A stretch of 63,321 bases of DNA, counting the filler, from Globobulimina sp. (taxonomy: Eukaryota): NCBI GenBank assembly GCA_003354225.1. It is 21 parts of 21 records of this genome, joined end to end, with 100 filler letters (N's around TTAATTAATTAA, not from the genome) between each part and the next. Parts side by side here need not be neighbours in the genome. Positions count along the whole stretch, not along the records: positions 3,024 to 5,946 come from PIVH01004355.1; 20 more parts are not named here. One strand, given 5' to 3'. How positions within the stretch are numbered: position 1 is the stretch's first letter; each line of letters starts with the position of its first letter. Shown piece by piece: positions 2,924-6,046 of this stretch. The position numbers and the translations under genes were made by a program. A model generated the notes under the pieces. It was not told the DNA's origin. It ran no database searches and worked only from the letters and a program-made list of their open reading frames with translations.

Positions 2924-3023
2924 NNNNNNNNNNNNNNNNNNNNNNNNNNNNNNNNNNNNNNNNNNNNTTAATTAATTAANNNNNNNNNNNNNNNNNNNNN
3001 NNNNNNNNNNNNNNNNNNNNNNN
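2924..3023. other. Artificial contig spacer (N-run + TTAATTAATTAA + N-run); 20 such spacers occur about every 3.02 kb
   Basis: The same linker, with stops in all frames, starts near 2924, 5947, 8969, 11991, 15012, 18033, 21053, 24073, 27093, 30113, 33133, 36153, 39173, 42193, 45212, 48231, 51250, 54268, 57286 and 60304. Confidence 0.99.
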
Positions 3024-5596
3024 CAAACAATAACGTTAGAATTGCGTGGTGATTGAATTTGCGTCATTTTAATGAAGATAATTTTTGATTTGTCATCCAT
3101 TTTTTTTTCGTTCTTTTTGTATGAGTTAATTTTAACCGCAGTAACTTTGAAATGTGAATGTGGCAGAAATAGCACTTCCTCCTCAGTACAAAATTTAGAC
3201 AATGGGGAGATATCTCTTCCGTCAATGGATGATATTTCAAACAATAAATGCGGTGGTTTTGCCATAGCAAATCCTATAGCTCTCGCCTGGCTCTTTGACG
3301 TTGCTGTTAACCGTCTAAATGATACAATATTTCCTGTTTTGTAACATGAAATATCTTTAACTCCAGCAATGCCGCGATACACTTTCTGTCCATAATAATA
3401 CGGCAATGATCGTAAAGCATACGATAAATAATATAAATATGGTTTCCATATTTGTAATTTGCTCATATCATTCGAGTCTAATGCTGCATTCACTGCTTTA
3501 TATAAAACGTTTGTGGTCCATAAATATACTGACAATAAACCAGCTTTTTGTATGTTAGCAAAATATTTTGGGTCCGACTTTTGACATTTTTCAATGATAT
3601 TATTTTGTTTTGCATACTTTAATGCCAATTTTAACTTTTTTTCATTTAATTCGTGATGTTCTTCAAATAAATATCGATCAAATCGTTTATTATCAATAAA
3701 TCTTTCACATACATCTGGCTGCGGTTGCTCTGCATTGACAAATGATGAAATCCACGAAGTAAACGAGCTATTACTGTCTTTTTCAGCCATTGCCATTACT
3801 TCATACGATTGTAACCAATTCATATATTGTAAGGAATTTCCACCCATTTTATTTTGAACCACATCAATAAAAGAATTTTCTGCAATTTTATACTCTTTTA
3901 ATAATTTCTCATCTTCCATATATTGCCCATGATATAAACAATGCGATGTTTGATATTGTCTTAATGTGGCAGTACATTCAAAGTTAAATAGCCACTTCGT
4001 GTAATCTTTGTGTACAACCACCTAATTAATTTGGTTCATATTTTGTATATACAAATTTACACAGATTGGCTATTTAATTTTTGAATAATTATTTTGTTAC
4101 CTTAGCAATGATAACACTGCAACTTTTTGTTCATCATTTTGTTTATTTTCCTCATTTTCTTTATTTTCCACAAACTCTTTTGCCATTATCGCTGAATATT
4201 CATTTTTTAACTTTTTAACATTCCAATTTAAATTGACGGACATTTTAATCGCAGTGTTTTCATCGAAAGGAATCATGGACAAAGTGATTGATGTGTTTTT
4301 GATCAGTTGTGATTCTGAAATATTCCTACATTTCTCAACAAATATCCTCATTCCATTATGATTCGCAACATTGCTATTTCTGGACACAACATCACCACTT
4401 GCACTCAGTAACATATTTTTATCAGAAATGCCACTTCTTTTCGATATCAATTTTCTAAGTTGAGCATAATTTAAATTTTCATTCAAATTCAAAACCATCT
4501 GTTTATCTTTGGAGAGTTGATACAGTCTAATCCTATATTTATATCCCTTTGTTTCTTTATTTGATTTAGATGAATATTGCAATGCTTTCTTAATACCATA
4601 TATCGGGGCATACAGAATACCGCCGGCCAACGCCAGCGGAACCCATATTGGTGCGAGTATTACACCGGCAACAATCAAAATACCTTCCCCACCACCACCG
4701 CCTCGTAATCGGAGGACTAAATGCAAAGTACTTTCAGGGATGATGTGATAATCAGGCAAAATTCTGCCATCTTCAAGTTGCCTACCAGCAAAAATCAACC
4801 TTTGTTGTTCTACCGGAATACCTTCCTTTGATGTAATGAAGTGCTTAACTCTTTGTATGGTATCATTCCATACAACATCGAATGTTAATGTTTTCCCAGT
4901 CAATGTTTTCACAAATATTTGCATTGTATTTGTAGCCATAGCATCTTGAATACGAAAAAAATCACCATCACAAATACAATATGCTTTGGCGGTATTATTC
5001 CAACACATATTATCCAGATATTGCTGACGATAAATTAGTAATAAACGACTTGATGATTTGAAAGCAGACACGATCGTAGGTTGTAGTGTTCGCAATGGCT
5101 CATTGGGATTGATATCTACATAAAATGGTTTCGCACTTGCGAAAATAAGACGAATTTTGATTTTTTTGTTTGGAGAATATACGAATAATTGCAAAATTGT
5201 TGAATCGTCCAGAAAACGGCTAATACGTTCTGCGTTGTGTAGAGCAAGAGAATTGCATGAATTTTGTGGTCTAATTTCTTGACAATCTGCTCGGTGCTTA
5301 TATTTTGTTTGGATGAGCTTTTTTAATTCAATGACAGTCATTGTTCCAGGCACATTAAATGTATATAATTCACTTTTATATGCAACTAATAGACTATTGT
5401 CGTTTGCTTTTAATTCATCTTTTTCTTGATCTGTTACTGTATTTTTTTGTTGGTCGTTTGAGTCATTGAATAATTGTTGTATCAATACATCATAATTATT
5501 ATCTGATTTATTTTCTGTGTGCGAGACAATGGTGTCTACCACAGGAATGTCATCACCATAATCTTTTGTAAAAAGGTCGATCTTTTCGTCTTCCAT
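3024..5596 (-). CDS. Poly-ubiquitin-like domain protein with C-terminal R-S-E (ARTC-type) ADP-ribosyltransferase; one intron at about 4022-4120; 3' truncated
   Basis: Ubiquitin [11 protein letters not shown]...[10 protein letters not shown] at 4697-4924, plus further Ubl-like units (one ends VVQNKMGG). ART motifs [34 protein letters not shown]. Acceptor TTAG at 4022; the donor position is ambiguous. Confidence 0.8.
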
Positions 5597-5651
5597 TTTA
5601 TATAATTAATAATTTACTCAAGATATTTCTTCGAAAAACCTTTGAAACAAC

Positions 5652-5946
5652 ATGTCACTTTTTTGTGTGATATATGTAGCAACAGTATTATCCATAGTTA
5701 CATCGACTGATGATTCTTCAGAATGTAAGTAACAAAAATTGTGTACATTTACGCAAGACAAATAAATAAATGAATTAATTTAATAATTGTCAGGTGGTCG
5801 TCATCGAAAAGCATGGCATTTATCAAGCGCAGAGGAACAAATGTTATATGTTCGCGGTTTCAAAGAATTACGCAATAACGGACAATTAGAGGTATTTATC
5901 GACGCCCATCATTTGGCAGATACTCCCATTTCATTTGCCGATGTTC
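5652..5946 (+). CDS. Secreted tyrosinase-like protein, N-terminal fragment (intron 5725-5793)
   Basis: Signal peptide MSLFCVIYVATVLSIV and a GTAAGT..CAG intron. The spliced sequence CGRHRKAWHLSSAEEQMLYVRGFKEL...FIDAH matches the tyrosinase N-terminal RKxWxxLSxEE pattern. Confidence 0.55.
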
Positions 5947-6046
5947 NNNNNNNNNNNNNNNNNNNNNNNNNNNNNNNNNNNNNNNNNNNNTTAATTAATT
6001 AANNNNNNNNNNNNNNNNNNNNNNNNNNNNNNNNNNNNNNNNNNNN

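Follow-up and report, generated by a model that had tools for sequence, protein, structure and literature searches.

Genes that join ubiquitin to an ADP-ribosyltransferase (ART) have been described from ciliates as BUBL, the BIL-ubiquitin-like 'polyubiquitin' loci with an ADP-ribosyltransferase (Dassa et al. 2004; Chiarini et al. 2019, 2021, as cited in PMC8616854), and in the Tetrahymena locus the BIL2 intein conjugates the upstream ubiquitin-like (Ubl) unit without E1-E3 enzymes (PMC8616854). Here we describe a ubiquitin-ART gene on the minus strand of a contig of Globobulimina sp. (assembly GCA_003354225.1), which occupies positions 3024-5946 of the window, that is, of the whole stretch of 63,321 nucleotides that was analysed. 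A literature search found the ciliate fusions described in PMC8616854 and the papers it cites and found no description of a foraminiferan ubiquitin-ART fusion; subscription papers and supplements may hold more in both cases. The fusion family is known from ciliates and barely studied, and the foraminiferan form is a variant new to description, in which, judging from its sequence, a plain LRLRGG junction and a hydrophobic segment take the place of the self-cleaving Hint domain.

The gene model and the family assignment are very probably correct. The features of the gene, in order of position along the product, are these:

5594..5596, minus strand: start codon, Met1 (the first ATG; in-frame stop three codons upstream)
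4101..5596, minus strand: exon 1, 1,496 bases, residues 1-498 and two bases of codon 499 (open frame)
5174..5407, minus strand: Ubl1, residues 64-141 (hhalign 93.7%, E 1.9e-7)
4931..5173, minus strand: possible Ubl2, residues 142-222, weakly supported (hhalign 5.4%, E 0.007)
4697..4924, minus strand: ubiquitin-derived unit (Ub3), residues 225-300, ending LRLRGG (Pfam PF00240, E 2.2e-29)
4592..4696, minus strand: GGGE linker and 31-residue hydrophobic Pro/Gly-rich segment, residues 301-335 (Kyte-Doolittle)
4301..4549, minus strand: probable Ubl4, residues 350-432 (hhalign 45.6%, E 2e-4, in register)
3839..4300, minus strand: Ubl5, residues 433-539, ending GG at 3839-3844 (Pfam ubiquitin; hhalign 91.3%)
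3960..4100, minus strand: intron, 141 bases, GT..AG, donor GTAACA at 4100, acceptor AG at 3961-3960 (contig joints)
3024..3959, minus strand: exon 2, 936 bases, open to the first base of the contig (no stop before 3024)
3056..3838, minus strand: ART domain, residues 540-800, helical N-terminal part and beta core (Pfam PF01129)
3374-3376, minus strand: R694 (VYRG), catalytic
3296-3298, minus strand: S720 (TATS), catalytic
3182-3184 and 3176-3178, minus strand: E758 and E760 (EEE), catalytic

Like the BUBL proteins, the product has serial ubiquitin and Ubl units upstream of a homologous ART with the R-S-ExE motif. The Tetrahymena thermophila 'polyubiquitin'/arginine ART record XP_001012667.2 (P0035) matches the Globobulimina ART at E 2.2e-15, and the two domains lie inside the same set of the ART tree described below, with a Shimodaira-Hasegawa-like approximate likelihood ratio test (SH-aLRT) value of 95. 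In both, the ART-proximal Ubl ends in GG at a junction that aligns, and the family alignment shows a receiver-like consensus after the ART. The differences lie at the ubiquitin junction and in the number of units. Neither open reading frame (ORF) of the Globobulimina gene gives a Hint, Intein_splicing, PT-HINT or Vint match (Pfam, E up to 1), and its LRLRGG is followed by GGGE and the hydrophobic segment, whereas in the BUBL-like P0011, P0015 and P0035 the Hint nucleophile Cys (CF.PS...) comes directly after LRLRGG. The Globobulimina protein also has more non-canonical Ubls, and is foraminiferan rather than ciliate.

The contig (2,923 bases, AT-rich, with a GC content of about 0.31-0.32) is the second of the 21 that make up the window (1-63321); each is 2,918-2,923 bases long, and they are sorted by length and joined by N runs around TTAATTAATTAA. 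Features at these joins (2924-3023, 5947-6046 and the others) are joins, not biology. The minus strand holds two stop-to-stop frames, 5605-4097 and 4021-2972. The start codon at 5596 is supported by the conservation of the N-terminal peptide in relatives: this peptide is acidic and is kept in the Nonionella proteins, with 58% identity between residues 7-44 and residues 7-43 of P0003. Contigs of X1 and of X4 cover exon 1 with no joint. In runs X4, X6 and X7 a single contig per run carries a joint between 3959 and 4101 that leaves out 141 bases (CT..AC on the plus strand), with a shorter side of 34, 93 and 51 letters respectively; these three runs represent two studies, because X6 and X7 are one sample. 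The phase fits across the intron: codon 499 becomes AG|A, an arginine (Arg499), with the frame still open, while a retained intron would meet an in-frame TAA right after the donor. The open frame of the spliced product runs for 810 residues with no stop and is truncated by the contig end. As position 3024 is that end, the 3' end of the gene is missing; an X4 contig of 1,441 bases extends beyond it.

Two further observations bear on the contigs of these runs. Those of X6 and X7 also splice the 69-base GT..AG intron of the adjoining plus-strand gene (5725-5793), and since the neighbour's intron is spliced out as well they fit RNA. Length differences in the relatives (12 bases missing in X1 at 4133, in the low-complexity insert of Ubl5; 3 additional bases in X7 at 4688, in the Gly run after LRLRGG; 9 and 3 additional bases in X4, at 5132 and 5422) are all in frame and multiples of three, as expected of a coding region. 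Inside the intron, at 4023-4089, runs X1 and X4 show extra contigs and loose ends, with an X1 depth of 21.4 against about 6.5, which suggests a short dispersed repeat; the X1 contigs cover the intron and break at this repeat, overlapping across 4054-4083. A donor GTGTTA, in phase with the 4022 acceptor and considered by eye, was dropped, as all three joints use 4100 and 3960. A tblastn search of the window with the spliced product and five relatives matched this locus alone. On balance we favour a single gene that is nuclear, contains an intron and belongs to a protist of foraminiferan (rhizarian) type; the multidomain protein it encodes would be cytosolic and at least 810 residues long.

Ub3 matches PF00240 with 101.4 bits (cut-off 25.4) over residues 227-298, aligns with positions 1-76 of ubiquitin from the PDB with 56 of 76 residues identical (counted from the alignment midline) and scores 99.9% in hhalign; its model has a predicted local distance difference test (pLDDT) score of 61-83. 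Three chain-forming lysines are replaced (K29F, K48R, K63P), so not all seven are present. K6, K11, K27, K33, L8, R42, I44, H68, V70 and LRLRGG are retained, as are R72 and R74, and K33 is altered too in the X4 and X7 relatives. The hhalign comparisons were local, against 16 ubiquitin units, with a 5-row query for which two ART-segment controls gave 0.1-0.2%; the 5-row figures are those quoted, and a 4-row query gave lower values (Ubl1 77.9%, Ubl4 4.5%). The Pfam ubiquitin match of Ubl1 is below cut-off (E 0.041), its model has a beta-beta-alpha-beta-beta pattern at pLDDT 50-69, and the orthologous part of P0004 matches PF00240 at E 2.1e-11. Ubl5 is split by the intron and by a low-complexity insert; positions 42-70 of the ubiquitin profile match it (E 2.4e-4), and its C-terminal half is modelled at pLDDT 79-92, with a tail that ends MGG directly before the ART. 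Permissive Pfam scans of the Ubl pieces returned nearly all beta-grasp families, every match below cut-off. For Ubl4 these were OTU1_UBXL (E 0.064), PB1 (E 0.1) and ubiquitin (E 0.1), and for Ubl2, whose model pLDDT is below 50, the sole match was the Cobl ubiquitin-like domain (E 0.17). By these profile and alignment scores, three ubiquitin folds (Ubl1, Ub3, Ubl5) are established, Ubl4 is probable and Ubl2 possible.

The first 50 bases of Ub3 (4875-4926) draw very deep contigs, up to 16,567 in X4, which are those of true ubiquitin genes at about 90% identity. Their loose ends at 4924 read Gly-Gly-Ala before Met (by eye; consensus agreement 0.6-0.93), which matches the one-residue insertion that rhizarian polyubiquitin junctions carry (PMC3014934).

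The ART domain matches PF01129 at E 4.8e-13 (49.4 bits, cut-off 22.3, profile positions 34-205 of 222). Among 50 aligned sequences the catalytic columns are kept in 46 (R), 43 (S), 49 (first E) and 47 (second E); the first Ser of S-x-S is Ala in the Globobulimina ART, likewise in 19 of the 50 family members. Modelling of the exon-2 product from the 50-row alignment gave a pLDDT of 88.8 and a predicted template modelling score of 0.86. The best ART match of this model in Foldseek is Vis (4xzj, E 7.7e-11), followed by XopAI, Plx2a, HopU1, Tre1, C3 and ART2.2, with a Foldseek probability of 1.00 for Vis, XopAI, HopU1, Tre1, C3 and ART2.2. A profile of the ART family searched against the PDB gave Vis at 1.9e-25 and Tre1 at 7.7e-24, and also matched Ub-eS31 chains. 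The domain thus shares its fold, the Arg, the Ser-x-Ser region and the Glu-x-Glu with the R-S-E arginine mono-ARTs (PF01129/PF03496), namely Vis of Vibrio, Tre1 of Serratia, HopU1 of Pseudomonas, XopAI of Xanthomonas, the clostridial C3 and the vertebrate ecto-enzyme ART2.2. It differs from them in sequence (the fold matches are just 13-24% identical), in being embedded in a ubiquitin-like polyprotein with no signal peptide rather than secreted or injected, and in the receiver-like domain that follows the ART in its orthologues. From these alignments the R-S-ExE set is complete and of the arginine type, and we predict that the ART is probably an active enzyme of that type.

Codon differences from the X4 relative were also counted. 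Our tally covers the differences listed, with 40 further ones outside it. In total, 13 codons differ synonymously and 19 non-synonymously (pN/pS about 0.37). Within residues 630-770, which form the ART core, the figures are 7 and 1; the linker after the ART is variable. Compared in this way, the ART core looks constrained.

The hydrophobic segment after Ub3 has a 19-residue Kyte-Doolittle maximum of 2.55, and nowhere else does the protein exceed 1.4. It contains 3 Pro and is modelled as coil at low pLDDT, and we regard it as a candidate membrane anchor or hairpin. The 810-residue product has no signal peptide, N-terminal hydrophobic stretch or trafficking domain, and the absence of an N-terminal hydrophobic stretch suggests a cytosolic location. 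Given ubiquitin folds on either side of the segment and the lack of a signal peptide, the more natural topology would be a hairpin that leaves both sides in the cytosol, and a single-pass transmembrane one seems less likely. In the Nonionella protein P0158 the junction reads LRLRLLGG|ADMNG and is followed in the same place by hydrophobic FAMAGIGAAAIVGSPFIIVGAGLYG (maximum 2.07); the same place in P0004, which has lost most of Ub3, reaches 1.49. The combination of LRLRGG and a hydrophobic segment is common to two paralogue groups only 33% identical, and therefore was probably ancestral in foraminifera and lost repeatedly. Among the 60 best matches of the HMMER scan with the second ORF, none has a hydrophobic segment directly after a ubiquitin unit.

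The features named in the original prediction are thus all present, and they lie on the minus strand, which it had not stated. It had described a near-canonical ubiquitin at 4697-4924 with L8/I44/V70, R42 and LRLRGG kept and K29F, K48R and K63P, a GGGE and long hydrophobic segment directly after it, and a GG-ending Ubl just before an ART with VYRG, TATS and EEE; the PF00240 match and PDB alignment, the hydropathy maximum at 4592-4696 and the PF01129 match bear out each of these. Its 'about five' ubiquitin folds can be kept for Ubl1, Ub3 and Ubl5, with Ubl4 only probable and Ubl2 only possible. That the two ORFs form one fused gene in a single reading frame is confirmed by the open frame and by the contig joints 3959-4101 from two studies. 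As these joints connect the ORFs in phase, they also settle the splice problem that had been left open: the donor GTAACA at 4100 was right, and the acceptor is at 3960 instead of 4022. Of the profile searches that had been suggested, those for PF00240 and PF01129 gave matches above cut-off, and the suggested search for the same architecture in rhizarians yielded collinear proteins in Nonionella and Bolivina.

A full HMMER scan with the second ORF returned 1,136 proteins at E up to 0.001, and the best 78 were scanned for Pfam domains. The best named relatives come from two foraminiferan species, Nonionella stella and Bolivina argentea, with several paralogues per foraminiferan species. Collinear with the Globobulimina protein are P0157 (36.6% identity over 806 columns, E 5e-150), P0003 (36%, E 3e-143) and P0158 (32.7%, E 2e-108). 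A search for homologues of near length found none for residues 303-499 of P0001 and none for P0002, and the search among longer proteins found 4. Of the 20 best relatives, 12 carry a ubiquitin domain (PF00240) and 6 a Hint, intein or PT-HINT domain; for the other 58 scanned the counts are 8 and 3, which brings the Hint-type domains to 9/78. Besides P0035 the ciliate relatives include P0037 from T. utriculariae and P0043 and P0074 from Paramecium. In a search of the PDB with P0015 ubiquitin chains dominate, and the Tetrahymena BIL2 entries are not among the 60 matches listed.

For the tree of the ART domain 80 candidates were taken, 11 without a match of at least 100 residues were dropped, and 70 rows were used. 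All 22 ubiquitin-bearing rows fall inside one 32-row set (SH-aLRT 95), and the ubiquitin label needs 8 changes on the tree against a mean of 19.1 for shuffled labels, a value reached by none of 500 shuffles. The Globobulimina ART groups with P0003 and P0157 (SH-aLRT 98), then with P0158 and P0004. By this tree, the family is one of protist ubiquitin-fused ARTs, forming one supported group that spans foraminifera and ciliates. More distant ART relatives (P0013, P0016, P0026, P0032, P0033, P0042, P0048, P0062, P0075, P0078), which either fall outside the ubiquitin-fused group or are absent from the tree, have WW domains, ankyrin repeats, VWA, tandem ART copies or a phage Mu F-like domain as partners.

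The orthologues continue past the point that corresponds to 3024, where a domain of about 130 residues (WVDDEPQNN...TDMVR...AG..L) comes after ...PR..(V/I)I(V/L), so that the ART is not the C-terminal domain in foraminiferan orthologues; the Globobulimina protein lacks this domain because the contig ends there. The Nonionella proteins P0003 and P0153 also have two MIB_HERC2 domains and an NZF-like finger; in one of these orthologues the MIB_HERC2 pair lies in an insert of roughly 690 residues after the conserved N-terminal peptide, and the finger stands between the ART and the C-terminal domain. The extra domains of the relatives (MIB_HERC2, IBR, NZF-like finger, WW) belong to the ubiquitin system or bind proteins. 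Together with the receiver-like domain, these partners speak for a regulatory enzyme that is internal and tied to ubiquitin, as opposed to a secreted toxin.

Ubiquitin is naturally made in fusion precursors, such as polyubiquitin and Ub-eS31/eL40, and ISG15 and FAT10 are tandem-Ubl modifiers. The Globobulimina protein resembles these in that an LRLRGG- or GG-ending ubiquitin fold is fused in frame to a downstream protein and in its tandem Ubls ending in diglycine. It differs in its cargo, a membrane-type segment and an enzyme, in the replacement of three chain lysines and in that cleavage here is predicted. Two of its units, Ub3 and Ubl5, have a terminal GG where they border another part of the protein. 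The ART-proximal Ubl is present in 27 of the aligned relatives and ends in GG in 20 of them (counted from printed rows), and such conservation makes processing at GG plausible. A conserved helix motif follows this GG (xxLxFMxW elsewhere, NSLQYMNWL in the Globobulimina protein), and the residue directly after it is never Pro among the rows aligned. From GG at the domain junctions it is reasonable to suppose that deubiquitinases or Ubl proteases may cut there.

We propose that the gene may encode an endogenous ART coupled to the ubiquitin system and made as a precursor, which deubiquitinases or Ubl proteases would cut after the GG of the ubiquitin and Ubl units; in ciliates the Hint/BIL domains directly after LRLRGG would do the equivalent job by self-cleavage. 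A cut after Ubl5 would part the ART-receiver module from the Ubl pro-region and the hydrophobic anchor, and a cut after LRLRGG would yield a tandem-Ubl piece with a free GG end. The latter would not be a ubiquitin of 76 residues, because no GG lies upstream of Ub3. The expectation in the original prediction that cleavage leaves a ubiquitin moiety therefore needs to be changed, and the predicted product is a piece of roughly 300 residues consisting of the N-terminal peptide, Ubl1, Ubl2 and Ub.

Several observations weigh against this proposal or against parts of it. Processing at GG is read from the conservation of a motif, and we put it forward tentatively. LRLRGG at Ub3 together with the hydrophobic segment is kept in 2 of the 6 foraminiferan proteins (the Globobulimina protein and P0158), while P0003, P0153 and P0157 have a non-GG Ub3 tail and a charged version of the segment. 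Between the Globobulimina gene and the X4 relative Ub3 shows no synonymous and 3 non-synonymous codons among the differences listed. The title of Chiarini et al. 2019, as given in the reference list of PMC8616854, calls the ART-linked Ubl of Tetrahymena 'non-conjugatable'. Two of the five units, Ubl2 and Ubl4, are not established. The structure prediction that had been suggested gave a confident model for the ART and a poor one for exon 1 (mean pLDDT 42.4; better for Ub3 and partly for Ubl1). The receiver-like character of the C-terminal domain is weakly supported (Response_reg, E 6e-4, below cut-off, in P0012; Atlas 0.92), and P0004, P0153 and P0006 give no Pfam match for this domain at E up to 5. 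As to the gene model, the runs with the joint are of a kind unrecorded or guessed ('?', 'RNA?'), and their contigs, being 90-99% identical to the window, come from close relatives and not from the source strain.

It is rather unlikely, in our view, that the protein is never cut and acts as a scaffold, with the Ubls as integral interaction modules that dock the ART on the proteasome, on ubiquitin-binding partners or on substrates, the GG as a mere hinge before the first ART helix and the hydrophobic hairpin as a tether with its flanks cytosolic. Such a role would suit the 'non-conjugatable' of the title just mentioned and the absence of GG at Ub3 from 3 of the 6 foraminiferan proteins; the tail of Ubl5 (QNKMGG, TNESGG) also differs from the LRLRGG recognised by ubiquitin-specific proteases, and the C-terminal half of Ubl5 and the helix after GG are modelled together at pLDDT 79-93. 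However, GG in 20 of 27 divergent relatives, never before Pro, exceeds what a hinge needs, and the self-cleaving Hint that directly follows LRLRGG in relatives indicates that junction chemistry at the ubiquitin C-terminus is used in this family. An artefact, whether a pair of distinct genes, a pseudogene or a chimera of the assembly, is almost certainly not what we see. Stops do separate both ORFs in the genomic sequence, the contig is short and the repeat in the intron breaks the contigs of X1, but in two studies there are contigs that connect the ORFs in phase, collinearity across the junction holds for five foraminiferan proteins, and the X1 contigs overlap across 4054-4083.

The original prediction had proposed a toxin or defence effector activated by a deubiquitinase. 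On this reading the protein would be inactive or anchored until cut, and its target would be a competing organism, a prey, a parasite or a virus. The solved proteins nearest to the ART are indeed bacterial toxins and injected effectors (Vis, Tre1, HopU1, XopAI, C3), there are Pretoxin-HINT matches in relatives and several paralogues per foraminiferan species, and change is fast in Ub3 and in the linker that follows the ART. As far as the accessible part of PMC3482391 describes them, Pretoxin-HINT polymorphic toxins resemble the relatives in having PT-HINT upstream of an ART; the Globobulimina protein itself differs in having no HINT or secretion domain and, in its orthologues, an ART that is not terminal. 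The accessible parts of PMC3482391, PMC4245714 and PMC11354881 do not mention ciliate or foraminiferan ubiquitin-ART fusions. We consider this reading improbable, since the product has no signal peptide or trafficking domain, the ART of orthologues is followed by the receiver-like domain (in P0003 and P0153 also by the NZF-like finger), which leaves no C-terminal toxin tip, partner domains such as MIB_HERC2 and IBR belong to the ubiquitin system, orthologues are collinear in three genera with a tip that is not polymorphic, and the ART core is constrained. It is very improbable that the ART ADP-ribosylates ubiquitin or its own Ubls (e.g. at Arg42), in cis or in trans, and so rewires or blocks conjugation as a host-encoded counterpart of the chemistry of Legionella SidE or Chromobacterium CteC. 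In its favour, a single supported group has the enzyme fused to its candidate substrate throughout, Ub3 retains R42, R72, R74 and the I44 patch, and bacterial ARTs that modify ubiquitin do exist, namely the SidE family and CteC, with whose mono-ART tied functionally to ubiquitin the protein can be compared (PMC5518988 and PMC10810742). Yet the Globobulimina protein has no phosphodiesterase domain or other SidE part (Pfam, E up to 1), its link to ubiquitin is a covalent gene fusion in a eukaryote, and Ub3 is degenerate in half of the orthologues; the nearest relatives of the ART are general arginine ARTs, and no specific sequence or fold match to SidE or CteC is among the matches listed for it.

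Upstream of the ART gene and head to head with it lies a neighbour gene on the plus strand (5643-5946), with an intron at 5725-5793 (GT..AG, 69 bases) that is joined in X6 and X7 contigs at a depth of 149-256, far above that of the ART gene. Pfam returns nothing for its exon piece of 50 residues (RKAWHLSSAEEQMLYVRGFKELRNNGQLEVFIDAHH) at E up to 10; we take it to resemble the start of a tyrosinase-type copper domain.

For the family as a whole, a bolder and quite improbable extension of the endogenous ART precursor proposed above would be a pathway of foraminifera and ciliates that couples ubiquitin-type tagging to arginine ADP-ribosylation. The membrane-tethered precursor would be switched on or released by a deubiquitinase at GG, the tandem-Ubl piece would serve as an ISG15-like conjugatable tag without K48/K63 chains, and the ART may mark arginines of ubiquitin or Ubls. 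If this is true, ADP-ribosylation of ubiquitin arginines would be the host-side counterpart of a chemistry so far known only from bacterial effectors. The gene model is now corrected, with the intron at 4100-3960 and the missing 3' end explained by the end of the contig. A gene fusion of ubiquitin and an ART is a natural signpost of two modification systems working together, and the system is simple, a single protein with two GG junctions and an ExE motif. It could reveal whether an ART is gated by cuts at the ends of ubiquitin units, and which targets the ARTs of free-living protists modify.

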